Assembly (NCBI GenBank): GCA_035632115.1
Contig: DASQHL010000133.1
Location: forward strand, 792-64,791
Direction of reading: 5' to 3'
From: Dehalococcoidia bacterium
GTDB lineage: Bacteria > Chloroflexota > Dehalococcoidia > DSTF01 > JACRBR01
DNA: 64,000 nt
Numbering within the stretch: the stretch's first letter is position 1; the number at the start of each line of letters is the position of its first letter. Below are positions 1,879 through 62,748 of this stretch, in pieces. The position numbers and the translations under genes are program-made. Below the pieces are notes generated by a model. The model had not been told where the DNA came from and did not search any database. It worked only from the letters and a program-made list of their open reading frames with translations.

Positions 1879-3795
1879 TCAGACCAGCGAGAACATCTCG
1901 ATCGGCTTGACGAGGCCGCTGCGCTCCACCGCGGGCTTGCCCTTCGCCGCCAGGCGCAGGTCGAATCGGTCCAGGCAGTCGTCGGCGTTCTGATTCTGCA
2001 CGCCGCAGACGTTGCACGGCTGCTTGTGGCAGTCCGGCGTCTGTTCGTGCTTGAGGGTGCGCAGCCACTCCGCCCGCAGGTACGACTCCGTCACGCCGAT
2101 GTTGATGTGCGACCAGGGAAACGGGTCCCAGAGCCCCGGCGAGCGATACGCGAAGAACGCCGGGTCGAGGCTGGCGGCATCGAGGGCGCGCTCCCATCGT
2201 GGCCAGTCGTAGTGTTCGTGCCAGGCGTCGAAGCGGGCGCCGCCCCGCCACGCATGCTCGATCGCCGCGCCCAGGCGGCGGTCGCCCCGCGAGAGCACGG
2301 CTTCGAGGAGGCTGTGCTCGGGGTCTTCCCACGTGAAGGCGACGCCGGACTTCTTGAGCGCGTCGCGCAGGTAGAAGTGGCGCTCGCGGAGCACGTCCGG
2401 GCGTGCCTGCTGCGCCCACTGGAACGGCGTGTGGGCCTTCGGGATGAAGTTCGAGGTGCTGACGCGCACGCGCGCGCGGCCGCCGTGCCGCTTGCGCCCG
2501 ATCTCACGCACCCGCCGGGCCAGTGTGACGATGCCCTCGACGTCCTCGTGCGTCTCCGTGGGCTGTCCGCACATGAAGTACATCTTGACGTTGGTCCAGC
2601 CGGCCGCGAAGGCGCGCTCCGCCGCGGTGTACAGATCGTCGTCGGTGACGATCTTGTTGATCGTCATGCGGAGGCGCTCCGTGCCGGCCTCGGGCGCGAA
2701 GGTGATGCTGTGCTTGCCGCGCGAAGCGACAGCCTCGGCGATCTGCACGGAAAAGCTGTCGACGCGCATCGAGGGCAGCGACAGCGCCAGACGGTCGCCG
2801 AAGTGGCCGCGGACCGCATCGACGATCTCCATGATGCGGGAGTGGTCGGTGGTGCTGAGCGACATCAGTGATAGCTCATCGTAGCCAGTGTTCCGCACCA
2901 GCTCCTTCGCCGCCTCCAGCACCTCCTCGGGCCCCCTCTCGAGCCGGGGGCGGTAGATGATGCCTGCCTGGCAGAACCGGCACCCCTGCGTGCACCCGCG
3001 CTGGATCTCGATGGCGGCGCGGTCGTGCACCGTCTGGAGGAACGGCACGATGGGCCGCGTGAGCGGCGGCGGCAGCTCCTGCACGAAGCGCTTGGTGACG
3101 CGTGCGGGCAGCCAGTCGAGCGTCGGGCGGACGGCGCTGATCGTCCCGTCGGCGTTGTACTCCGGCCGGTAAAAGCGCGGAACGTAGATGCCCCAGATCT
3201 TCGCCAGGCGCTGCAGCATCTCGTCGCGGCTGCCGCGCCCCTGCCGCTTCCACTCGCGCACGAAGTCCGCGACATCGACGATCGTCTCCTCACCGTCGCC
3301 CAGCACGAACACGTCGACGAAGTCGGCGAGCGCGTCCGGGTTGAGCGCGCCGGACCCGCCGCAGATCACCAACGGGTGCGCGTCACTCCGCTCTTCGGCG
3401 CGCACCGGAAGGCCGGCGAGGTCGAGCATGTTGAGGATGTTCGTGTACGTGCCCTCGTAGCTCAGCGAGAAGCCGATGACGTCGAACTCGGTCAACGGGT
3501 GGCGCGACTCCAGGCTCCACAGCGGCACGCCCTCCGCCCTCATGAGCTGCTCCATGTCCGACCACGGCGCGAAGACCCGCTCGGCCAGCATCCCATCGCG
3601 GCGGTTGATGATGTCGTAGAGGATGCCGATGCCCATGTTGGACATGCCGATGTCGTAGAGGTCAGGGTAGGCGAACACCATGCGGACGTCGCAGGCTTCC
3701 CAATCGCGGACAGCCGAGTTCCACTCGCCGCCGGTGTAGCGGGCCGGCTTGCCGACGCGAGCGAACAGAGACTCCAGGTTGTGGAGTGCAGGCAC
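1879..3795 (-). CDS. Radical SAM protein, B12-binding-like N-terminal domain fused to a DUF2344-type C-terminal domain (TIGR03960/TIGR03936-like)
   Basis: 638-aa ORF with the CxxxCxxC radical-SAM cluster motif (CTQGCRFC). High GC3 throughout. Confidence 0.9.
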   Translation of the reverse strand: MPALHNLESLFARVGKPARYTGGEWNSAVRDWEACDVRMVFAYPDLYDIGMSNMGIGILYDIINRRDGMLAERVFAPWSDMEQLMRAEGVPLWSLESRHPLTEFDVIGFSLSYEGTYTNILNMLDLAGLPVRAEERSDAHPLVICGGSGALNPDALADFVDVFVLGDGEETIVDVADFVREWKRQGRGSRDEMLQRLAKIWGIYVPRFYRPEYNADGTISAVRPTLDWLPARVTKRFVQELPPPLTRPIVPFLQTVHDRAAIEIQRGCTQGCRFCQAGIIYRPRLERGPEEVLEAAKELVRNTGYDELSLMSLSTTDHSRIMEIVDAVRGHFGDRLALSLPSMRVDSFSVQIAEAVASRGKHSITFAPEAGTERLRMTINKIVTDDDLYTAAERAFAAGWTNVKMYFMCGQPTETHEDVEGIVTLARRVREIGRKRHGGRARVRVSTSNFIPKAHTPFQWAQQARPDVLRERHFYLRDALKKSGVAFTWEDPEHSLLEAVLSRGDRRLGAAIEHAWRGGARFDAWHEHYDWPRWERALDAASLDPAFFAYRSPGLWDPFPWSHINIGVTESYLRAEWLRTLKHEQTPDCHKQPCNVCGVQNQNADDCLDRFDLRLAAKGKPAVERSGLVKPIEMFSLV

Positions 3796-48524: not shown

Positions 48525-49169
48525 ATGCCCATCGAGATCCCGGACGTTGTCATCGACCGCCTTCCCGTGTACGCGCGCGCCCTCGCGTCGCTGGAGCGCG
48601 CCGGGCGCGAGGTCGTCTCCTCGCAGGAGCTGGGCACCCAGCTCGGCGTGACCCCCGCCCAGATCCGCAAGGACCTGAGCTACTTCGGCCGCTTCGGCAA
48701 GCAGGGGCGCGGCTACAACGTGCGGCGCCTGCTGGAAGAGCTGCATCAAATCCTCGGCCTCGACCGCCGCTGGACGATGGTCGTCGTCGGCGTCGGCCAG
48801 CTCGGGCGCGCCGTCCTCAGCTACGGCGGCTTCGCCCCGCAGGGGTTCGAGATCATCGAGGCGTTCGACGCCGACCCCGCTGTCGTCGGCTCCCGCATCG
48901 ATCACCTCGTCGTCAAGCCGGTCGACGAGATCCGCTCGCTGTTGTCCGGCCGCGGCGCCGACATCGGCATCGTCGCCACACCCGCCGCCGCCGCGCAGAA
49001 GGTGATCGATGCGCTCGTCGACAGCGGCGTCCGGGCGATCCTCAACTACGCGCCCATCGCCGCCCACGTGCCGCCGTACGTCCACATCAAGGACATCGAC
49101 CCCGTGCTGTCGCTGCAATCCATGACCTTCTACCTGAAGGACGAAGTCGCTCCGACAACCTCCAAGTAG
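48525..49169 (+). CDS. rex: Redox-sensing transcriptional repressor Rex
   Basis: N-terminal winged helix …RLPVYARAL…, Rossmann NADH-binding …VVVGVGQLGRAV…. Full-length Rex similarity. Confidence 0.9.
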   Translation: MPIEIPDVVIDRLPVYARALASLERAGREVVSSQELGTQLGVTPAQIRKDLSYFGRFGKQGRGYNVRRLLEELHQILGLDRRWTMVVVGVGQLGRAVLSYGGFAPQGFEIIEAFDADPAVVGSRIDHLVVKPVDEIRSLLSGRGADIGIVATPAAAAQKVIDALVDSGVRAILNYAPIAAHVPPYVHIKDIDPVLSLQSMTFYLKDEVAPTTSK

Positions 49170-49217
49170 CGCCCGCCCGGTCGGCGTCTCGCCCGCACAC
49201 GCCACATATACTGCCGC

Positions 49218-49946
49218 ATGCTGCCTTCGCGCCGGACTGAATTCCTCGCCGGCGTGCGCGCCCAGCTCCCGCTGCTGCTGGGCGTCGCCCCCTTCGGCAT
49301 GGCCTACGGCGCCTACGCCGTGAAGGCCGGACTCCCGTCCGGCCTGTCGCAGGCCATGTCGGCGATCGTCTTCGCCGGCGCCAGCCAGTTCGTCGGTGTC
49401 CGCCTGATCGTGCGCGACGTCCCCGCCGCCGTCATCGTGCTGACCGTCCTGCTGGTCAACTTGCGCCACGTCCTGTACAGCGCCTCCCTGGCGCCCTACG
49501 TCGAACACCTGGACCGCCGTTGGCGCTGGCTCCTCGCCTACCTGCTGACCGATGAGGCGTACGCCACGGCGATCGTCCGCTACCGCGGCGCTGCCCCCTC
49601 GCCGTACAAGCACTGGTTCTTCCTCGGCACGGCGATCACCCTGTGGGCGGCCTGGCAGGTCAGCACCGGCGCCGGCGTCTTCGTCGGCACCGCCGTGCCC
49701 AACTCGTGGTCGCTGGACTTCGCGCTGCCGCTCACCTTCATCGCCCTGCTGGTGCCCATGGCGTCGGAGCGGCCCGCGCTGGCCGCCGCCGCCGTGGCGG
49801 GACTGGTCGCCGTCGTGGGGTTCCGCTGGCCGTACGGCATCGGGCTGATCGTCGCCGCCGGCGCGGGCATGGCGGCGGGGATCGCGCTTGACCGCGCGCT
49901 CTCCCCATCTGCTCCGGCCGCCGCCGATGTCGAGGCCGGCCCGTGA
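49218..49946 (+). CDS. azlC: AzlC-family branched-chain amino acid exporter subunit
   Basis: AzlC signature …SAIVFAGASQFV…; 6 TM helices. Confidence 0.85.
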   Translation: MLPSRRTEFLAGVRAQLPLLLGVAPFGMAYGAYAVKAGLPSGLSQAMSAIVFAGASQFVGVRLIVRDVPAAVIVLTVLLVNLRHVLYSASLAPYVEHLDRRWRWLLAYLLTDEAYATAIVRYRGAAPSPYKHWFFLGTAITLWAAWQVSTGAGVFVGTAVPNSWSLDFALPLTFIALLVPMASERPALAAAAVAGLVAVVGFRWPYGIGLIVAAGAGMAAGIALDRALSPSAPAAADVEAGP

Positions 49947-50263
49947 GGCTCTGGCTGATCGTGCTCGCGATGGGCGCCGGCACCTACGGCATCCGGCTCT
50001 CCGTGCTCGCGCTGGTGCATCATTCGGCCCTGCCGCGCACCGCCCGCGAGGCCCTGCGCTTCGTGACACCCGCCGTGCTCTGCGCCATCGTCCTGCCCGC
50101 GGTCCTCTACACCGGCCCGGCTGCCGCGTTCGATGCCGGGCCGGGCAACCAGCGCCTGCTCTCCGCCATCGTCGCCGCGCTGGTCGCCTGGAGCGCGAAG
50201 AACGTCTGGCTCACGATCGGCGCCGGCATGGGCGTGCTCTGGCTCCTCCAGTGGGCCTCCTGA
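49943..50263 (+). CDS. azlD: AzlD-family branched-chain amino acid exporter small subunit
   Basis: GTG start overlaps the azlC stop (GTGA). 106-aa, 3-4 TM helix AzlD-like protein. Confidence 0.8.
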   Translation: MRLWLIVLAMGAGTYGIRLSVLALVHHSALPRTAREALRFVTPAVLCAIVLPAVLYTGPAAAFDAGPGNQRLLSAIVAALVAWSAKNVWLTIGAGMGVLWLLQWAS

Positions 50264-50321
50264 CCGCTGCGCCTTTGCTACACTGCCGCCACCCCCGCGG
50301 GATCCGCCCGAGGAGATCGCC

Positions 50322-51593
50322 GTGACGATCACCGCATCCGAGATCGAGCAGAAGGCGCGCGAGGCGAAGCAGGCCGCCCGCACGCTCGCCACGCTCTCCA
50401 CCCAGGTCAAGAACGCCGCCCTCAACGCGCTCGCCGACGCGCTAGTGGCACGGACGGACGAGATCCTCGCCGCGAATGCGCGCGACCTTGACCGCGGCCG
50501 CGCGGACGGGCTCACCGCTGCTGTCACCGATCGCCTGACGCTCGACGCAGCCCGGCTCGCCGCCATCGCGAAGGACGTGCGCACCGTCGCCTCGCTGCCG
50601 GACCCGGTCGGCGAGATGCTGGAGATGCGCACCCTCCCCAACGGCATGATGGCCGGCAAGATGCGCGTCCCCTTCGGCGTCATCGGCGCCATCTACGAGA
50701 ACCGCCCGAACGTCACCGTCGACATCGCCTCGCTCTGCCTCAAGGCCGGAAGCGCTACCATCCTGCGCGGCGGCAAGGAGGCGCTGGAGTCCAACGTCGT
50801 CCTCGGGCGCGTGATCCACGCCGCGCTCGCATCCGCCGGCGTCCCGGCTGCTGCCGTCCAGATCATCGAATCGAGCGACCGCGCCATCGTCGCCGAGATG
50901 CTGGCGATGAACCAGTACATCGACCTCGTCGTTCCGCGCGGCGGCGAAGAGCTCATCCGCTTCGTCGAGCGAAACGCGCGGATGCCGGTGCTCATCGGTG
51001 GCATCGGCGTCTGCCACACCTACGTCGATCGCGCCGCGGACCTCGCGAGGGCGCGCGACATCGTCGTCAACGCGAAGACGCGCCGCTACAGCATCTGCAA
51101 CGCGCTCGATACCATCGTCGTCCACGCGGACGTCGCCGCCCGCTTCCTCCCGGACGCCGCCGACGCCCTCGCCGAAAAGGGCGTCGAACTGCGCTGCGAC
51201 GAGCGCGCCCACGCCCTCCTCCGGGGCCGCCCGGGCGTCACGCCCGCCACCGACGCCGACTTCGGCAAGGAGTGGCTCTCCCTCGTCGCCTCCGTCAAGG
51301 TCGTTGATTCGTTCGATGACGCCGTCGATTTCATCTACCGCTACAGCAGCGGCCACTCCGACGCCATCATCACGGAGGACTACTCCGCCGCGATGCGCTT
51401 CCTGCGCGAAGTCGATACCGCCGTCTGCTACGTGAACGCCAGCACGCAGTTCACCGACGGCGCGCAGTTCGGCCTCGGCGCGGAGATCATCGATGCCACC
51501 CAGAAGTTCCACGCCCGCGGCCCCGTCGGCCTGCGCGAGATCTGCACGTACAAGTGGATCGTCTTCGGCACCGGCCAGGTCCGGCCCGCCTGA
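50322..51593 (+). CDS. proA: Gamma-glutamyl phosphate reductase
   Basis: RBS GAGGAG then GTG at 50322. ProA/aldehyde-dehydrogenase motifs (…ICNALDTIVVH…, catalytic Cys). Confidence 0.9.
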   Translation: MTITASEIEQKAREAKQAARTLATLSTQVKNAALNALADALVARTDEILAANARDLDRGRADGLTAAVTDRLTLDAARLAAIAKDVRTVASLPDPVGEMLEMRTLPNGMMAGKMRVPFGVIGAIYENRPNVTVDIASLCLKAGSATILRGGKEALESNVVLGRVIHAALASAGVPAAAVQIIESSDRAIVAEMLAMNQYIDLVVPRGGEELIRFVERNARMPVLIGGIGVCHTYVDRAADLARARDIVVNAKTRRYSICNALDTIVVHADVAARFLPDAADALAEKGVELRCDERAHALLRGRPGVTPATDADFGKEWLSLVASVKVVDSFDDAVDFIYRYSSGHSDAIITEDYSAAMRFLREVDTAVCYVNASTQFTDGAQFGLGAEIIDATQKFHARGPVGLREICTYKWIVFGTGQVRPA

Positions 51594-51615
51594 TCGCTAC
51601 CCGCCCCCGGAGCTC

Positions 51616-52386
51616 TCACGCGCTCTCGACGCTGCCGCGCCCGGCGCGCGGCCGCCGCGTCCGCAGCACCTTCACCCCCCGGTCGTCGTAGAGCAGCGGC
51701 ACCGTCGCTGAGACATCGATCTGCGCCGCGTAGCGTAGGTCCTCGACGAAGCCGCCTTCCTCCAGCGTCCTGCCGTGCTTCGACTGGCGGAAGATCCGCC
51801 CCGCGTCGCCGCGGTACCATCGCCAGAGGTGCAGCGCCGCCCACGCCTCGTCCGTGAGCGCCAGCGCCGGATCGGCGTCCCGCGCCGCCTCGACGATGGC
51901 GCCGGCTGCGGCCGTGTCCTCCAGGCTGAACGCCGTGCCGCGCTCCGTCCCCGCGCACACCACCGCGATGTCCAGCCGCCGCCGCCCCGCCTCGTCCACC
52001 ATCCGCCCGGCCACCGCGCGCCGGTTCGTCAGCGCCGCCGCCGCCACGACCGGCGCGTCCGCCGCCGCCGCGAGCGCCCGTGTGCCGTTCGTCGTGCACA
52101 GCACCGCCGACTTGCCTCGAAACGATAAGTGAGAGAACTCGGCCGGCGAATTGCCGTAGTCGAACCCCGGTGGTGGCGCCGCGCGAACCTCCCCGCAGAG
52201 CAGCGCGAAGTTGGCCAGCGCCAGCTTCCGTGCCTGCTGCAGGTTCTCGCTCACCATCGCCCGCAGCAGCCCGCCCTCGAACATCGCCACCAGCGACGTC
52301 GTCGCGCGCAGCACGTCGACGACGGCGACGGCGTGGCGGCGCGGCTCACGCAGCAGCCCCGGCGTCAGCGCCACCGTGATCCTCAT
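51616..52386 (-). CDS. 2-phosphosulfolactate phosphatase (ComB) family protein
   Basis: ATG at 52386 (MRITVALTPGLL…). ComB-family similarity across 256 aa. Confidence 0.75.
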   Translation of the reverse strand: MRITVALTPGLLREPRRHAVAVVDVLRATTSLVAMFEGGLLRAMVSENLQQARKLALANFALLCGEVRAAPPPGFDYGNSPAEFSHLSFRGKSAVLCTTNGTRALAAAADAPVVAAAALTNRRAVAGRMVDEAGRRRLDIAVVCAGTERGTAFSLEDTAAAGAIVEAARDADPALALTDEAWAALHLWRWYRGDAGRIFRQSKHGRTLEEGGFVEDLRYAAQIDVSATVPLLYDDRGVKVLRTRRPRAGRGSVESA

Positions 52387-52519
52387 GATGCGAGCGTACG
52401 CCGCCCTGCCCCGCAGGTCGAGGGCGCGCGTCAACTTGACGGCCCGCCCACGCCCGCCGCCGCGCTTTCGCCGCCGGAGGCGCCGCTGGCCGTGCCTGCC
52501 CATCCCCTATCATGCAGCC

Positions 52520-54289
52520 ATGGCCCGCATTGAGGCCTCGATCGAGGACTTCGGCACGCGCGTCGCCTCCCTCCCGCGGGGCTTCTGGCGGCGCGGCCGC
52601 GCCGATACGTCGCTGGAGACGCTGCCCGGCGGCATCCGCCTCGCCGTCCTCACCTCACCTTTCATCGTGCGCTGGGCCGCCTGGCTGGTCGCCGTCCTCA
52701 TCGTCGTCATCGCCAACGAACCGCGCGTCAACGTGCGCTTCGAGCCGTGGCTCCTGCTCGGCACGATGGTGCAGACGGCACTCGTCACCTTCTACGTGCC
52801 AGTCATCCGCCCGGCCCTCCTCCCCGTCCTCCGCCGCTGGTTCGAGACGCCGGAGAACAACGACGTGCTCGTCCTCGGCCTCGCCGACCTTACGCTCTCG
52901 ATGACCGCCGTCTACCTCAGTGGCGGCTGGGGCAGCCCGTACTACCACTTCGCGCTGACCGCCCTGCTCATCCCCGCGTTCTTCTTCACCTTCCGCGGCG
53001 TGCTGCTGCTCGGCGGCGCCTTCATGGCAGCCTACGTCTTCGGACTGATGACCTTCGGCGATGGCGTCCACGGCGGCTGGAAGGACACCAACCTCAACAG
53101 CTTCATCGGCGCCATGGTGACGCCGCTCCTCGTCGCCCTCGTCCCGAACTACCTCGGCACCGTCCTGCGCGAGCTCGATGCCGCGCGCCAGGACGCCGTG
53201 GAGGCCCTCGGCGATAGCGACCTCCTCTATCGCGTCGCGCGCGCCTTCCTGGAGGGCGCCCGCCAGCCCGCCGCCGTGCTGCCTAACGTCGCCGCCTCCG
53301 CCGTCGAGGAGTCGCGCTTCTCCCGCGTCGCGCTGCTCGTCCCGCGCGATGGCGCCGTCCAGGCCTTCGGTACGGACCTCGACCCACCACCGGAGCTGGA
53401 GCGCCTGCGCACGGCGTTCGATGCCGAGGGCGCGCGCACCTGGCTTGCCGACGCGCTGCCGCCGCCGCTCGATGCCGCCTTGCGCGGCTGCGCCTGGTGC
53501 GGCGTCGTCCCCCTGCGCTCCTCCGATGGCATCGAAGGCTGGGTCGTCGCCGGCGCGCTCGAACGGCCCGCCTCCATCCTCCATCAGATCCGACTGCTCG
53601 ACGCCATGGCCGGGCAGATCGCGCTGGGCGTCCGCAACATCCGCCTCACCGCCCGCGTCGCCGAACTGGCTGCCGAGTACGAGCGGGGCCGCATCGCGCG
53701 CGAGATCCACGACGGCATCGCCCAGATGGTCTACATGCTCTCCCTCAGCCTGGAGACCGCCATCGATCGCGTCGGCAGCGACCCCGCCGAGCAGCGCCAG
53801 CGCCTGAAGGACCTGACGGCGCTCGCCAAACATGCGCTCTGGGAAGTGCGCCAGTACATCTTCGACCTCCGGCCTCTGCTCAGCGGCGACGAGGGCCTCG
53901 CCGGCGCCGTGCAGGGTCAGGTCCAGGAGTTCCAGGCTGTCTCCGATCTGCCGGTGGACTTCGTCGTCCGCGGCGAGCCTGGCCCCCTCCCCATGGAGAC
54001 CAGCGCCGCCCTCTACCGCATCGTGCAGGAGGGGCTGGGCAACATCTTCCGCCACGCCCAGGCCTCGCACGTCGCGATCGAGCTGGCCTTTCGCGACGCC
54101 TCCGTCGCGCTCGCCATCAGCGACGACGGCGTCGGCATCAGCGACGCCGAGCCCGGCGCGCGCGTAGGCTACGGCATGGCGAACCTGCGCGAGCGCGTCG
54201 AGGCACTGCGCGGCACCCTCGCCGTGCGCAGCGAACCCGGCGAGGGTACACGTATCGAGGTCGCAGTGCCGGTCGGAGGAGACACATGA
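52520..54289 (+). CDS. Membrane sensor histidine kinase, NarL/LuxR-partner type (HisKA_3 + HATPase_c)
   Basis: ATG at 52520. N-terminal multi-TM sensor region. H-box …EYERGRIAREIHDGIAQ…. N and G boxes …IVQEGLGNIFRHA… and …DDGVGI…. Confidence 0.85.
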   Translation: MARIEASIEDFGTRVASLPRGFWRRGRADTSLETLPGGIRLAVLTSPFIVRWAAWLVAVLIVVIANEPRVNVRFEPWLLLGTMVQTALVTFYVPVIRPALLPVLRRWFETPENNDVLVLGLADLTLSMTAVYLSGGWGSPYYHFALTALLIPAFFFTFRGVLLLGGAFMAAYVFGLMTFGDGVHGGWKDTNLNSFIGAMVTPLLVALVPNYLGTVLRELDAARQDAVEALGDSDLLYRVARAFLEGARQPAAVLPNVAASAVEESRFSRVALLVPRDGAVQAFGTDLDPPPELERLRTAFDAEGARTWLADALPPPLDAALRGCAWCGVVPLRSSDGIEGWVVAGALERPASILHQIRLLDAMAGQIALGVRNIRLTARVAELAAEYERGRIAREIHDGIAQMVYMLSLSLETAIDRVGSDPAEQRQRLKDLTALAKHALWEVRQYIFDLRPLLSGDEGLAGAVQGQVQEFQAVSDLPVDFVVRGEPGPLPMETSAALYRIVQEGLGNIFRHAQASHVAIELAFRDASVALAISDDGVGISDAEPGARVGYGMANLRERVEALRGTLAVRSEPGEGTRIEVAVPVGGDT

Positions 54290-54933
54290 CAACGCGGCTG
54301 ATGATCGTCGATGACCACGAGGTGGTGCGGATGGGGCTGCGCGCGGCGTTGGAGGTGGAGCCGGACTTCATCGTCGTCGCGGAGGCCGGCAACGGTCAGG
54401 ACGCCATCGATAAGGCGCGTGCCCACCAGCCCGACATCGTGCTCATGGACGTGCGGATGGACGGCATGGACGGCATCGAAGCCTGCCGCGAGATCCGCAA
54501 CGAGTTGCCGGCCACGAAGGTGCTGATGCTCACCTCGTTCGCGGAAGAAGAGACGGTGGTGGCCGCCCTCCTCGCCGGCGCCGCCGGCTACGTGCTCAAG
54601 AACGTCGCCCGCTCACGCCTGCTGGAGGCGCTCCGCTCCGTCGCCGCCGGCGAATCGCTGCTCGATTCCAAGGTGACCAGGGCGGTGCTCGATAAGCTCG
54701 TCGCTCAGCGCCAGTCCGCCCCGGTCGATGACGGCGCCGAGCTGACGGCCCGTGAGCGCGAGGTGCTGGCGCTGATCGCCGAGGGCGCTACCAACAAGGA
54801 GATCGCCGCCAGCCTCGTCGTGAGCGAAAACACCGCCCGCAACCACGTCAGCCACATCCTTTCGAAGCTCGGCTTTAGCCGCCGCTCCGAGGCTGCCGCC
54901 TACGCCGTCAAGAAGGGCATCGTGCGCGAGTAG
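54286..54933 (+). CDS. Response regulator, NarL/FixJ family (REC + LuxR HTH)
   Basis: ATG overlaps the HK stop (ATGA). REC motifs MIVDDHEVVR…DIVLMDVRMDGMDG. LuxR HTH …LTAREREVLALIAEGATNKEIAASL…. Confidence 0.9.
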   Translation: MTTRLMIVDDHEVVRMGLRAALEVEPDFIVVAEAGNGQDAIDKARAHQPDIVLMDVRMDGMDGIEACREIRNELPATKVLMLTSFAEEETVVAALLAGAAGYVLKNVARSRLLEALRSVAAGESLLDSKVTRAVLDKLVAQRQSAPVDDGAELTAREREVLALIAEGATNKEIAASLVVSENTARNHVSHILSKLGFSRRSEAAAYAVKKGIVRE

Positions 54934-54957: not shown

Positions 54958-55518
54958 CTACCAGCGCTGCTCCGCCCACGGTTCGCCGGTAATGTCCGCC
55001 ACGTGCATCCGCACGTGCTGCACCGCGACCGCCATCAGCACGCCCGCCAGCGGCCCCGTGATCCCGCCCGCGGAGCGGATCGGCGCGGCGAGCAGCGCGG
55101 AGTCCACGCCTTCCACCGCCGCGATCGTCCGCGCCCGGTTCGCCGCCAGCTCGTCGATCAGCTCCGCCGCACTCGCCCCGGCGCGCTTCTCCACCTGCCG
55201 CGCGTTGTAGTCGTCGATGCCCCCCCGCGCGCTGCGGGTCGCCATCCCGGCGCCCTCCGCCTCGTTCGTGCGGCGGACCCCGCCGGCCGGCGCCGCCCCC
55301 GGAGGTGCGTCCTTCGCCACGTCCAGCAGCCGCGCGTACGTCCACTCGATGGATGCGATGTGGGCCAGGATCTCGCGTCCGTTCCAGCCGTTCTCGTACC
55401 GCCCCTGCTCGAACGCCGCCGCGTCCATCGCCCGCAGCCGCGCGACGGCCTCGTCGCCGCTCCCCCGCAACGCCGCCAGCAGCTCCGCCTTCGTCGGTGT
55501 GCGCTCTTCCGTGATCAC
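54958..55518 (-). CDS. DinB/YfiT-family (DinB_2) protein, second paralog
   Basis: DinB_2 His triad context (…GREILAHIASIEW…, …AVQHVRMHVADI…). Confidence 0.7.
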   Translation of the reverse strand: MITEERTPTKAELLAALRGSGDEAVARLRAMDAAAFEQGRYENGWNGREILAHIASIEWTYARLLDVAKDAPPGAAPAGGVRRTNEAEGAGMATRSARGGIDDYNARQVEKRAGASAAELIDELAANRARTIAAVEGVDSALLAAPIRSAGGITGPLAGVLMAVAVQHVRMHVADITGEPWAEQRW

Positions 55519-55884
55519 ACCTTCCCCTTCGCCTTCTGCCGGTAGTTGTATTGCAGTGACGAGCTCAGATCAACGCCATCGGTACGCCGCACCCGCGCCA
55601 GTGCGGCCTCGTAGCGCGCCCCTGCTTGACGGCGGCCCACGCCGCTGTAACGCCGTACAGGGCCGCCCGTTTGTGTCTGTGTCGAAGGAGGCGGGGCCTT
55701 CGACAACAAACGGGGTACGGCAGCAATGCCGCACTCCGTTTGTTTGTCCGCCGCATTCGTCATCGCCGCCCCGCGCCTCGCCGAAACGCGCATACCTGCT
55801 CGCCTTGGCGCCCTCCGGTTTGCCGCCCTGCGTGCCGATCCGGTACACATAGGCGACCGATCCCGGAGCCCGCAGGACCCCATA

Positions 55885-57345
55885 TTGAACGTCCTCTTCG
55901 CGACCATGGAGATGAGCCCACTCGCCAAGGTGGGTGGACTCGGCGACGTCGCTGGCTCGCTGCCCCGCGCCCTCCGTGCGACCGGCGCCGATGTGCGCGT
56001 CGCCATGCCCATGCACGGCGCCATCGAGCGTGCGTCGCTGCCGCTCCGGCGCGTGCTCCAGGGGGTGGAGGTGGCGTGGCCCGACGGCCCCCAGCACGTC
56101 GATGTCTGGCAGACCGACGCCCGCGGCGTGCCCGTCTACCTGCTCGAGAACGAGCGCTACTTCGGCCGCCCCACCGTCTACGGCTTCGACGATGACCTCG
56201 AGCGGTTCATCTTCTTCTGCGACGCGCTGCTCGCCTGCGCCCCGCACCTCGGGTTCCGGCCGGACGTCGTCCACGCCCAGGACTGGCACACCGCGTTCCT
56301 CATGACACGCCTCGCCACCTCGCCCGCCCATCCCTGGGCCGATGCCGGCCGCGTCTACACCATCCACAACCTCGCGCTGCAGGGCAACTTCGATGAAGGG
56401 TTCGCCCACCGCCACGGCCTCGCCTCCGCCGATCTCGCTCCGCCCGATGGCCTCCCCTGGAGCACCGGCCTCAGCGGCATGGCGCAGGGCATCATGCACG
56501 CCGACCGCGTCAACACCGTCAGCGACACCTACGCCCGCGAGATCCTCACCCCCGAGTACGGCGCCGGTCTCGACCCGCTGCTGCGCGCCCGCGCCGCCGT
56601 CGTCTCCGGCATCGTCAACGGCATCGATTACGACGAGTTCAACCCCCGCACCGACCCGGCCATCGCGTGCCACTTCAGCGCCGATGATCCGGCCGGCCGC
56701 GCCGACGATCGCCGCGCGCTCCAGGAGGAGGCCGGGCTGCCCGCCAGCGAGACGGCCGTTGTCTTCGCCGCCGTCACGCGCCTCTTCGCGCAGAAGGGCA
56801 TGGACCTCGCTGCCTCGGCGTTCGAGCGCCTGCTCGACGGCCAGGACGCCCAGCTCATCATCCTCGGCACCGGCGACGAGGAGCTGCACCGCACGCTGCT
56901 CCGTCTCCAGGATGCGCACCCCGACCGCGTCAAGATCTGGCTCGACTTCAACCCGCCGCTGGGCCAGCGGATCTACGCCGGCTGCGACGCCTTCCTCATG
57001 CCCTCGCGCTACGAGCCCTGCGGCCTGGGCCAGCTGATCGCGCTCCGCTACGGCGCCGTGCCGCTGGCGCGCCGCACCGGCGGCCTCGCCGATACGGTGC
57101 AGGACGCCGATCTCGCCGCCGCCGCTGGCAACGGATTCGTCTTCGATCAGCCAACCGCCGCCGACCTGCAGGCAGCGGCGGAGCGCGCGCTCGCGGCCTT
57201 CCGCGATCGCGCCGGCTGGCGGGCACTCCAGGACCGCGGCATGCGACAGGACTGGTCGTGGGGCCGCGCCGCCGGTAAGTACCTGGAGCTGTACCGCGCC
57301 GCGCACGCCGTGCGCCTCCAGGAGCGCGGGGTCGCCGGCGCATGA
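55885..57345 (+). CDS. glgA: Glycogen/starch synthase (GT5, ADP-glucose type)
   Basis: N-terminal ILNVLFATMEMSPLAKVGGLGDV (K-x-GGL motif). Full-length GlgA similarity. Putative TTG start at 55885. The in-frame ATG at 55726 adds 53 aa of low-GC3, rare-codon sequence, judged non-coding. Confidence 0.8.
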   Translation: MNVLFATMEMSPLAKVGGLGDVAGSLPRALRATGADVRVAMPMHGAIERASLPLRRVLQGVEVAWPDGPQHVDVWQTDARGVPVYLLENERYFGRPTVYGFDDDLERFIFFCDALLACAPHLGFRPDVVHAQDWHTAFLMTRLATSPAHPWADAGRVYTIHNLALQGNFDEGFAHRHGLASADLAPPDGLPWSTGLSGMAQGIMHADRVNTVSDTYAREILTPEYGAGLDPLLRARAAVVSGIVNGIDYDEFNPRTDPAIACHFSADDPAGRADDRRALQEEAGLPASETAVVFAAVTRLFAQKGMDLAASAFERLLDGQDAQLIILGTGDEELHRTLLRLQDAHPDRVKIWLDFNPPLGQRIYAGCDAFLMPSRYEPCGLGQLIALRYGAVPLARRTGGLADTVQDADLAAAAGNGFVFDQPTAADLQAAAERALAAFRDRAGWRALQDRGMRQDWSWGRAAGKYLELYRAAHAVRLQERGVAGA

Positions 57346-58322
57346 ACACGCAGACGCTGTTCGGCGGCGTCGACCTGGGCGGCACCAAGATCCTGGTCCT
57401 TGTCTCCGATGGCGCCGGCAACGTCGTTGGCTCCGGCAGGGTCGCCACCGAGGCGGCTCAGGGGCCGGAGCCGGTCATCGGGCACATCGTCCAGGCCGCG
57501 AAGGAAGCCGCCGCCGAAGCGCAGGTGCCCCTCTCGGCCCTGCGCGCGGTCGGCGTCTCCGCGCCGGGTCCCATAGAGACCGCCGTGGGCGTGATCACGG
57601 ATCCGCCGAACCTCCCCGGCTGGCACAACGTGCCGCTCGCGCGCATCCTGCGCGAGCGCCTCGGCGTGCCCGCCGTGCTCGAAAACGACGCGAACTGCGG
57701 CGCCGTCGGCGAACACGCCTTTGGCGCCGGCCGCGGCTACCGGCACCTCATCTTCGTCACCGTCAGCACCGGTATCGGCGGCGGCATCATCATCGACGAT
57801 CGCCTGTACGCCGGCGCATCCGGCGCCGCCGGCGAGGTCGGCCACCTCGGCGTCTCCGTCGACGGGCCAACCTGCGGCGCCGGCCACGTCGGCTGCCTCG
57901 AAGCGTTCGCCTCCGGGACCGCCATCGCCGCCCGCGCCCGCGAGATGATCGCCGCCGGCGGCCTGCCCCGCACCGCCCGCCTCGCCGGACAGGACCCCCC
58001 GCTCTCCGCGAAGACCGTCTTCCTGGCGGGCCAGCAGGGCGAGGTCGAAGCCGCGGAGATCATCCGCTCGGCGGGGCGCTACCTGGGCATCGGCCTGGCC
58101 AGCATCATCAACGCCTTCAATCCGCAGGCCATCGTCATCGGCGGCGGCCTCACGAACATGGGAGACGCCATCCTGGGACCAGCAGTGGAGACCGCCCGCA
58201 CCCGGTCGTTCGCCCAGTCGTTTACAGACGTGCGCATCGTGGAGGGGGAGCTAGGCGAGCGCGCGGCGGCGCTCGGCGCGATCGCGGTCGCCCGCAACCG
58301 CGTCGCTGCGGAGGCCGCATGA
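57342..58322 (+). CDS. ROK-family sugar kinase (glucokinase-like)
   Basis: ATGA overlap with glgA. ROK motifs …VDLGGTKILV… and the CxCGxxGCxE zinc motif (…CGAGHVGCLEAF…). Confidence 0.85.
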   Translation: MNTQTLFGGVDLGGTKILVLVSDGAGNVVGSGRVATEAAQGPEPVIGHIVQAAKEAAAEAQVPLSALRAVGVSAPGPIETAVGVITDPPNLPGWHNVPLARILRERLGVPAVLENDANCGAVGEHAFGAGRGYRHLIFVTVSTGIGGGIIIDDRLYAGASGAAGEVGHLGVSVDGPTCGAGHVGCLEAFASGTAIAARAREMIAAGGLPRTARLAGQDPPLSAKTVFLAGQQGEVEAAEIIRSAGRYLGIGLASIINAFNPQAIVIGGGLTNMGDAILGPAVETARTRSFAQSFTDVRIVEGELGERAAALGAIAVARNRVAAEAA

Positions 58323-62211: not shown

Positions 62212-62748
62212 CTACCCGCCCAGTTGCTGGATCCACGCCCGCGCCACGCCGTCCGTGACCTCGAGGAACCCGACCGTCCCGAGCCGCCGCGTCAGGTTCC
62301 GCGGGAACGTCGGGCTCCCGGGATTCACCAGCAGCACGCCCCGCATCTCCTCGACCTCCGCCACGTGCGTGTCGCCGTGTACCAGCACGTCCACGCGCCC
62401 GCCGAAATGGTGCTCCATGATCGATTCCAGCGTGCGGTGCGGTGGCCACTCCGGCAGCGTCGCATCGTGCACCATGCCGATGCGGATCCCCTCGACCGTC
62501 AGCGTCTGCACGGGCTTCATCCGCGGGTCGTCCGGGCAGACCGGGCGACCGCCCCCACCGTCGTCACCGTTCCCGCGCACGGCCAGCACCGGCACGCCGC
62601 ACCGCTCCTCCAGCCAGTCCAGCACCTCCACGACGTGCAGATCTCCCGCGTGCAGGATCAGTTCCGCGCCGCGAAGCGCATCGTACGCTTCGTCCCACAG
62701 CGGCCCCGCCTCCGGGTAGTGCGTGTCGCCGATCAGGCCGATCCGCAC
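62212..62748 (-). CDS. YfcE/MJ0936-type metallophosphoesterase
   Basis: GTG at 62748 preceded by GGAGTGGAGG. Motifs RIGLIGDTHY…ILHAGDL…VRGNGD…GHTH. Confidence 0.8.
   Translation of the reverse strand: MRIGLIGDTHYPEAGPLWDEAYDALRGAELILHAGDLHVVEVLDWLEERCGVPVLAVRGNGDDGGGGRPVCPDDPRMKPVQTLTVEGIRIGMVHDATLPEWPPHRTLESIMEHHFGGRVDVLVHGDTHVAEVEEMRGVLLVNPGSPTFPRNLTRRLGTVGFLEVTDGVARAWIQQLGG

Follow-up and report, generated by a model that had tools for sequence, protein, structure and literature searches.

A conserved two-hairpin element upstream of glgA in a Dehalococcoidia genome: a candidate stand-alone small RNA gene with a predicted ECF-type promoter

The intergenic element and its family

The stretch of DNA analysed here (the window, 64,000 nucleotides; positions 792 to 64,791 of contig DASQHL010000133.1 of a Dehalococcoidia bacterium) contains a structured element in the gap of 366 bp that separates a DinB_2 gene on the minus strand (54958-55518) from glgA on the plus strand (TTG start at 55885). 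An initial annotation described the element as an AT-rich nested hairpin with three repeats in the glgA leader, and the strings it drew on are present at the positions it gave: the first repeat, CCCGTTTGT, occupies 55666-55674 and the second, ACAAACGGG, 55706-55714; between them an inner stem of GTCGAAGG (55681-55688) and CCTTCGAC (55697-55704) encloses the loop AGGCGGGG (55689-55696), and a third copy, of CCGTTTGT, follows at 55736-55743. The inner stem in fact comprises 9 bp, being extended by a T55680-A55705 pair (U-A in RNA). The repeats are beyond chance, in that CCGTTTGT occurs three times in the window (counting both strands), all inside one 78-nt stretch, compared with an expected count of 0.65; at least three copies anywhere were obtained in 3 of 100 shuffles. 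The AT-richness is real but modest, with a GC content of 0.603 compared with a window mean of 0.707 (standard deviation 0.055), which puts it among the 4% of 78-nt windows with the least GC.

Homologues were retrieved by three routes, i.e. from relatives of GlgA, with a DNA pattern in metagenomes, and from the neighbours of AzlC in combination with a covariance model (R1); 25 distinct homologues, from Chloroflexota metagenome-assembled genomes (MAGs) and metagenomes, were aligned (alignment A6). The GlgA relatives, from MAGs labelled Dehalococcoidia or Chloroflexia, place the window itself in Chloroflexota. Two of the 12 closest GlgA loci (L001 and L009) have a homologous island of ~100 nt upstream of glgA, both flanks of which have diverged; the element is missing upstream of glgA in the other ten (L002-L008, L010-L012), in which R1 finds no diverged copy either. 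The metagenome scan, which used a pattern of two conserved blocks, gave 23 loci, with 18 true members and five chance matches without the hairpin (L086, L090, L092, L098, L102). Because this pattern forces the loop of the first hairpin (termed HP1) and the GCAA loop of the second to be identical, sampling via AzlC was added. This motif-unbiased route yielded seven loci with the element (R1 matches beside azlC in L104/105, L107-109, L110/111, L112/113, L115/116, L117 and L118/119), one of which re-found a pattern match, and R1 finds no element in the AzlC-route contigs L106, L114 and L120/121. Overall, 16 of the 25 aligned sequences are pattern-derived and nine were retrieved without use of the motif, via neighbouring proteins. 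R1 scores 100.9 bits at the window element, and there is exactly one copy per locus.

The whole window has no match in Rfam 15 at gathering thresholds, and a search of 55400-56000 at E<=10 gave just two chance-level eukaryotic matches (E>1), neither of which overlaps the element. No family of Rfam 15, including 6C, SRP, 6S and the riboswitches, matches the element on either strand, and ARAGORN finds no tRNA or tmRNA. A phage origin was considered and rejected: the sole match in a viral contig lacks the hairpin, the promoter boxes and the terminator, looks coding and is a chance match. The family would be a new small RNA (sRNA) family of an ordinary kind, lying outside Rfam.

Two conserved helices on the plus strand

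The invariant core of the element is HP1 (55680-55705, plus strand), in which a 9-bp stem of UGUCGAAGG and CCUUCGACA is closed by the 8-nt loop. Across the 25 sequences HP1 (UGUCGAAGG-AGGCGGGG-CCUUCGACA) is essentially invariant and 99% paired, the changes being one compensatory swap of C-G to U-A, which is seen in four sequences, together with eight wobble cells (G-U/U-G) that form a pair on the plus strand but not on the other. The nine motif-unbiased members are identical in HP1 save for the swap (L115) and wobble changes (L110, L112). Spanning its 5' arm and loop, HP1 shows GAAGGAGG, a perfect Shine-Dalgarno-like sequence. The invariance is at the nucleotide level, without synonymous-site variation, and a sequence frozen to this extent points to a sequence-specific interaction, whether with a C/U-rich RNA site or with a protein partner.

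Two coding interpretations of the region were rejected. The ATG at 55726 is, as the initial annotation stated, in frame with glgA, and its judgement that translation does not begin there holds, since the frame across the element differs between homologues (L087 and L095 read GSNAA there); the nucleotide-level invariance likewise argues against an N-terminal extension of GlgA. A minus-strand open reading frame (ORF) of 63 aa (55565-55756) crosses both the invariant HP1 and the variable spacers, without a coding pattern.

The minimum free energy fold pairs the second repeat (ACAAACGGGG in the middle copy) with the third, not with the first. This pairing extends the GCAA-capped hairpin to 16-17 bp, after which comes GUUUGUUUGU, so that the whole has the shape of an intrinsic terminator. 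The hairpin (55706-55743, plus strand) runs from ACAAACGGGGU-A-CGGCA through the GCAA loop (55723-55726) to UGCCG-C-ACUCCGUUUGU, the base of its stem being formed by the second (reverse-complement) and third repeats, and the U-rich tail GUUUGUUUGU occupies 55739-55748 on the same strand, with a predicted RNA 3' end at ~55745-55750. Compensatory changes are present in 10 of the 16 pairs, and 89.5% of the cells in the 25 sequences are paired, compared with ~40% in slid controls; the energies for cognate and non-cognate arms are -25.7 and -20.4 kcal/mol, respectively (p<0.0002). The tail has 4-9 T in the last 12 alignment columns in 25/25 homologues, in genomes of 70% GC. In L117, HP1 is kept and a different terminator stem and loop stand at the same position.

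A G+C-rich covarying stem-loop with a U tract on the transcribed strand is thus present, as expected for intrinsic termination, and the second hairpin is a predicted intrinsic terminator. That it varies freely yet stays paired, that it has been replaced in L117, and that a T-rich tail follows it lead us to assign it as the terminator and HP1 as the functional core. A consensus scan also calls a terminator-like site at the tail region on the opposite strand.

The outer stem of the proposed nested hairpin, in which the first repeat pairs with the second, can be drawn over 9 bp but is not the favoured fold. For the window sequence (72-nt RNA), HP1 plus terminator has an energy of -39.5 kcal/mol, compared with -27.3 kcal/mol for HP1 plus outer stem, i.e. 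the two are ~12 kcal/mol apart. The covariation check on relatives that the initial annotation had suggested was run for this stem, and found neither covariation nor conservation: in the family alignment the stem is 61.9% paired, compared with 59.6% in shuffles and 33-56% in slid controls, and its duplexes reach -14.4 kcal/mol with cognate and -13.8 kcal/mol with non-cognate arms (permutation p=0.12). On these pair counts and energies the outer stem is rejected as a conserved structure and is specific to the window, which is among the strongest cases in the family of pairing between the 5' box and the terminator arm. A nested hairpin is apparent in this genome because a -10-like box upstream of HP1, described below, and the 3' arm of the terminator both contain CCGTT. 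An inverted repeat of AACG (in GTAACG) with CGTT, whether considered as RNA or as DNA, is broken by GTAATA/GTAACA and TGTT/GGTT/AGTT variants and was also rejected.

When HP1 and the terminator are taken as one structure, 92.9% of the cells are paired and 11 pairs have double changes; none of 500 shuffles is as good, and slid controls reach 35-53%. The G-U cells, which are numerous, assign the RNA to the plus strand, as each would become an A·C mismatch if the other strand were transcribed.

Promoter-like boxes, flanking genes and interpretation

Conservation upstream of HP1 is confined to two boxes, (T)GTAAY at 34 to 29 nt and (CC)GTT at 13 to 9 nt before the first HP1 base. In the window these are TGTAAC (55646-55651, plus strand), which is a conservation peak and resembles the -35 box (GTAAY) of promoters for extracytoplasmic function (ECF) sigma factors, and CGTT (55668-55671, plus strand), which resembles the -10 box (YGTT) of such promoters and lies inside the first CCGTTTGT copy. 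GTAA is invariant in the 19-sequence alignment A2; conservation peaks at GTAAY (33 to 29 nt before the first HP1 base) and at YGTT (12 to 9 nt before it), with hardly any variation in the GTT at 11 to 9 nt. The boxes are separated by an unconserved, GC-rich spacer, which measures 16 nt in 18/25 homologues and 17 nt in 7/25; the distance from GTT to HP1 is 8 nt in 22/25, and these ~8 nt are relatively AT-rich. At the element, all family loci searched have GTAAY-N16/17-YGTT, with the exceptions of L097 and L099 (second box GGTT or AGTT), and outside the element copies the composite motif has one match (L086) in 458 kb of Chloroflexota-type sequence. The YGTT box does not co-evolve with the terminator arm.

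An AAC-core -35, a CGT/GTT-core -10 and a spacer of 16-18 nt, the sequence hallmarks of ECF promoters, are all present. For Corynebacterium glutamicum, a SigD consensus with a -35 of GTAAC(A/G), then ...GAT, and a SigH/SigE consensus of GGAAC-N17-18-cGTT are reported (PMC6338062, PMC10012870). The element has in common with the ECF promoters of that organism a GTAAY -35-like box, a YGTT -10-like box, a 16-17 nt spacer and an AT-richer ~8 nt before the predicted start, whereas it differs in mixing a SigD-like -35 with a SigH/E-like -10 and in a spacer ~1 nt shorter than that of SigH/E; the consensus is actinobacterial and the likeness is one of sequence. The two-box geometry matches that of an ECF-sigma promoter, from which we infer the class of sigma factor. 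Such a geometry predicts a start exactly at the beginning of the conserved RNA, and the first CCGTTTGT copy, as it overlaps the -10-like box, would be mostly promoter DNA. The three repeats are consequently not a single functional unit, as had been proposed: the second and third copies would be the two sides of the terminator stem base, and the first overlaps the separate YGTT box.

Neither the identity nor the orientation of the downstream gene matters to the presence of the element. The 5' neighbour is divergent in 24/24 loci and belongs to one of five families (azlC in 16 loci; DinB_2 in four, i.e. the window, L001, L087 and L104; proA in two; and a FabF-like and a NUDIX-like gene in one each). 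On the 3' side there is a co-directional glgA in 10/24 loci, another co-directional gene in 6/24 (azlC, Rrf2, a 23S-IVP gene, a DinB-like ORF and two unidentified ORFs, at one locus each) and a convergent gene in 8/24 (PrsW-like, Rrf2 or NUDIX-like); some of these labels (FabF-like, NUDIX-like, and DinB-like in L100) were judged by eye from translations rather than assigned with Pfam. Conserved promoter-like boxes and a terminator, at a position not tied to one flanking gene, are as expected for an independent unit; the constant, coherent co-directional downstream gene expected for an attenuator is not seen.

In addition, glgA has signals of its own (55820-55887, plus strand), namely TTGCCG (55820-55825), an 18-nt spacer, TACACA (55844-55849), AGGA (55874-55877) and the TTG start. 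The corresponding block, TTGCSR-N17/18-(R)TACACATAG, is strongly conserved ~35 nt ahead of the glgA start codon and is followed after ~25 nt by AGGA and then TTG; of 20 loci, nearly all have it whether or not they contain the element (the window, L001-L012, L087, L089, L093, L095, L103, L104, L107; GlgA 60-76% identical). The block looks like a promoter (a -35 and an unusual TACACA -10), possibly with a regulator site (…ACATAG) in addition. A transcription start downstream of the element was the observation that the initial annotation had named as telling against its own proposal, and the position of this promoter-like block (55820-55849) suggests just such a start. Since glgA keeps the block independently of the element, a cis-acting glgA leader is unlikely.

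The best explanation, in our view, is that the element is a stand-alone sRNA gene of ~68 nt (55680 to ~55748) transcribed from an ECF-type promoter, to which we give a probability of roughly 0.55; that it is an independent sRNA gene, whichever promoter serves it, we hold with considerably more confidence. The element is probably not a control element built into the glgA message. With respect to the options initially listed (cis-regulatory RNA, attenuator or sRNA), a structured, conserved plus-strand RNA element, with an sRNA among its possible forms, therefore stands and the attenuator does not. Transcription would start at the first HP1 base or within 1-2 nt of it (~55679-55681), driven by the TGTAAC and CGTT boxes, the sequence and spacing of which are of the ECF-sigma (group 4) type, and would stop at the GCAA-capped hairpin and U-tract (55706-55748). 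The predicted sRNA (55680-55748, plus strand), the ends of which follow from the promoter and terminator geometry, would comprise HP1, an A/C-rich junction and the terminator. HP1 would be its working part, with its sequence and not its pairing alone frozen, and would expose the G-rich, Shine-Dalgarno-like loop GGAGGCGGGG. By analogy with sigma-E-type-dependent sRNAs, the RNA may act in trans, with the loop pairing to C/U-rich sites in target RNAs; alternatively, HP1 may be a sequence-specific protein-binding hairpin. glgA would be transcribed from its own promoter, ~110 nt further downstream.

Several points weigh against this explanation. Transcription itself, its start site and the 3' end are all deduced from the DNA. 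The invariance of HP1 is carried mainly by the nine independent members, because the other 16 of the 25 came by the pattern that forces the loops. There is no second copy of the composite motif in the 458 kb of Chloroflexota-type sequence that would define a regulon, and no ECF sigma gene (sigma-70_r2/r4) within ±2.5 kb in the annotated loci. glgA is co-directional downstream in 10 loci, where read-through of the terminator into glgA is possible, and ~10/25 homologues have a good TTGACR hexamer, which raises the possibility of a sigma-70-type start near 55660 and hence of an RNA that includes the CCGUU box. Crude duplex and loop-complement searches yielded neither a target nor a partner. RNAduplex pairing of the sRNA with the glgA translation-initiation regions was no better than with shuffles, and the loop complement, CCCCGCCTCC, is common in this GC-rich DNA. 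A 12-nt string identical to part of the HP1 loop region, GGAGGCGGGGCC, at 62702-62713 (sense on the minus strand; also in L089 at ~1953) was rejected as a target: it belongs to the coding strand of a Metallophos_2 phosphoesterase gene, where the conserved motif PEAGP is encoded, and as the Metallophos_2 mRNA has the same sense as the sRNA, the match is a coincidence.

The possible sigma-70-type start deserves consideration, although we regard it as doubtful. TTGACG (55626-55631, plus strand), a -35-like hexamer that may belong to a second, overlapping promoter, lies 16 nt upstream of TAACGC (55648-55653); the same sRNA, starting near 55660, would then be ~90 nt long, and its single-stranded CCGUU-U/G-rich 5' segment would be a seed or would transiently pair with the left arm of the terminator. 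Consistent with this proposal, CTTGAC(A/G) is found 14-18 nt upstream of TAAY in ~10/25 homologues, from several lineages, and in the window the first repeat can pair with the second over 9 bp. However, in over half of the family the hexamer is missing or stands on the opposite strand (GTCAAG), and TAAYGN lacks the final T of the apparent housekeeping -10 boxes (TATACT before azlC; TACACA before glgA). A two-box promoter would also account better than a seed for the invariance of the G preceding TAA and for a 4-nt peak, YGTT, that recurs at a constant spacing; nor does the 5' box co-evolve with the terminator arm. The RNA predicted from the ECF-type promoter could be a decoy ribosome-binding site, in that a stress-induced, ECF-sigma-driven transcript of ~68 nt might engage the anti-Shine-Dalgarno tail of 16S rRNA, or a protein that recognises Shine-Dalgarno hairpins, through GAAGGAGG and the G-rich loop. 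This is a long shot and, to our knowledge, action of this type by an sRNA is without good precedent; if true, it would imply a global retuning of translation initiation in a lineage in which some mRNAs (azlC) look leaderless.

An attenuator in the glgA leader, i.e. a riboswitch-like element or a protein or CsrA target in which pairing of the first and second repeats forms an antiterminator, pairing of the second and third the terminator, and the choice between them controls read-through, is improbable on the evidence from the family. As in attenuators, riboswitch platforms and the CsrA-regulated glg leaders, the three 8-mers of the window genome allow two mutually exclusive hairpins of textbook form, one of them a terminator, before a glycogen gene, and that gene is co-directional downstream in 10/24 loci; the antiterminator stem, however, is unconserved, does not co-evolve and is unavailable to members with TGTT, GGTT or AGTT boxes (L085, L097, L099, L117, L118). 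Eight loci have a convergent gene downstream and six more have one unrelated to glgA, and the ten of 12 GlgA relatives without the element keep the separate glgA-proximal promoter-like block. The comparison with CsrA-targeted glg leaders made in the initial annotation does not hold either: although HP1 has one GGA (55687-55689), where its stem meets its loop, a CsrA-binding RNA would be expected to have at least two such motifs, preferably in hairpin loops, and CsrA targets typically have several; Rfam likewise offers no matching riboswitch or leader. About as little credence can be given to a DNA element without a functional RNA, in which the inverted repeat TGTCGAAGG-N8-CCTTCGACA and GTAAY/YGTT would be regulator sites for divergent promoters (the azlC/DinB side) and the second hairpin a bidirectional terminator. 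Invariance of both HP1 arms at the sequence level is indeed unusual for a plain RNA stem, the element is always within a divergent promoter region, and the symmetric C-G to T-A swap would also keep a DNA palindrome. On the other hand, the eight wobble cells of HP1 break the palindrome and keep RNA pairing on the plus strand only, the 8-nt loop is as invariant as the arms, and HP1 is immediately followed, at a constant distance, by a covarying terminator and its U-tail, in the manner expected of a transcription unit.

Relation to known small RNAs and neighbouring genes

sRNAs that depend on ECF (sigma-E type) sigma factors include MicA, RybB and MicL of enterobacteria and FoxI/FoxJ of Fusobacterium. 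The predicted sRNA would resemble these in being encoded by a stand-alone intergenic gene, in its size class (~70-90 nt), in having a two-box ECF-like promoter right before the functional 5' part and an intrinsic terminator, and in a presumed role as the post-transcriptional arm of a stress regulon. It differs in having no sequence or Rfam similarity to them, in its predicted rather than established sigma dependence, and in that what is conserved is a closed hairpin, with a stem of 9 bp and a G-rich loop, whereas the known ECF-dependent sRNAs use a single-stranded 5' seed and mostly Hfq. A limited literature search found no characterised sRNA from Chloroflexota. The 6C RNA of Actinobacteria (Rfam RF01066) offers a different comparison, being likewise a small RNA of high-GC bacteria that is single copy and syntenic, with sequence-conserved hairpin loops of extreme base composition. 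Unlike the present element, 6C has at least two C-rich loops; the element has one G-rich loop on the strand supported by the wobble pairs, the C-rich version being on the wrong strand, and cmscan gives no match to 6C on either strand.

Covariance model R1 and the 25 members provide a candidate sRNA with a fixed strand and predicted boundaries and promoter type, from uncultured soil and groundwater lineages. They may be useful for mining of metatranscriptomes and for linking an ECF-type promoter motif to its sigma factor in Chloroflexota, and they correct an attractive but wrong 'glgA attenuator' annotation that would otherwise spread. General concepts would be affected only if the Shine-Dalgarno-mimic hairpin turned out to act on an unusual target, such as the ribosome or a global RNA-binding protein.

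With respect to the neighbouring genes, the likely ancestral order is proA<-azlD<-azlC(<-DinB) | element -> glgA -> ROK, as in L104 and L107. This synteny is broken in the window, where the Rex-azlC-azlD-proA genes (48525-52506 region) lie 6 kb away from, and inverted relative to, 54958-58322. Between the two are a ComB-like phosphatase gene (51619-52506, minus strand) and a two-component pair on the plus strand, comprising a HisKA_3 histidine kinase (52211-54289) and a NarL/LuxR-type response regulator (MTTRLMIVDDHEVV…, ~54289-54933). The frame of the response regulator is hidden in a longer spurious ORF (53497-54933) and ends 25 nt from the convergent DinB_2 gene. Downstream of the element, the glgA stop overlaps the start of a ROK-family (glucokinase-like) gene (ATGA, 57342-57345); the pairing of the two genes is conserved in L104 and L107-L109, and the overlap suggests translational coupling in an operon.

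Genes for PrsW-family membrane proteases (PrsW-like) adjoin the predicted sRNA gene in L083, L084, L091/L112, L096, L110 and L117, and genes for Rrf2-family regulators do so in L082, L085, L101, L117 and L118. Activation of the ECF sigma factor SigW in Bacillus subtilis depends on PrsW as the site-1 protease; the presence of PrsW-like genes beside an RNA with an ECF-like promoter is curious and may be mere synteny.

Two further observations concern the 5' regions of the divergent neighbours. Immediately before the DinB_2 start, on the opposite strand, there is a short AT-richer motif, GGTAGTTGTATTGCAGTGACGAGC (55519-55570; reverse complement …TACAAC…), and L001 has GATAGTTTTATTGTAGTAAGAGC at ~3600-3660; the motif probably represents the promoter or 5' region of DinB_2. 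The azlC gene appears leaderless (49207-49220), as its TATACT -10-like hexamer (49207-49212) ends 5 nt before the ATG at 49218; the motif ATATACTGCC also precedes azlC in L009, L082 and L115.

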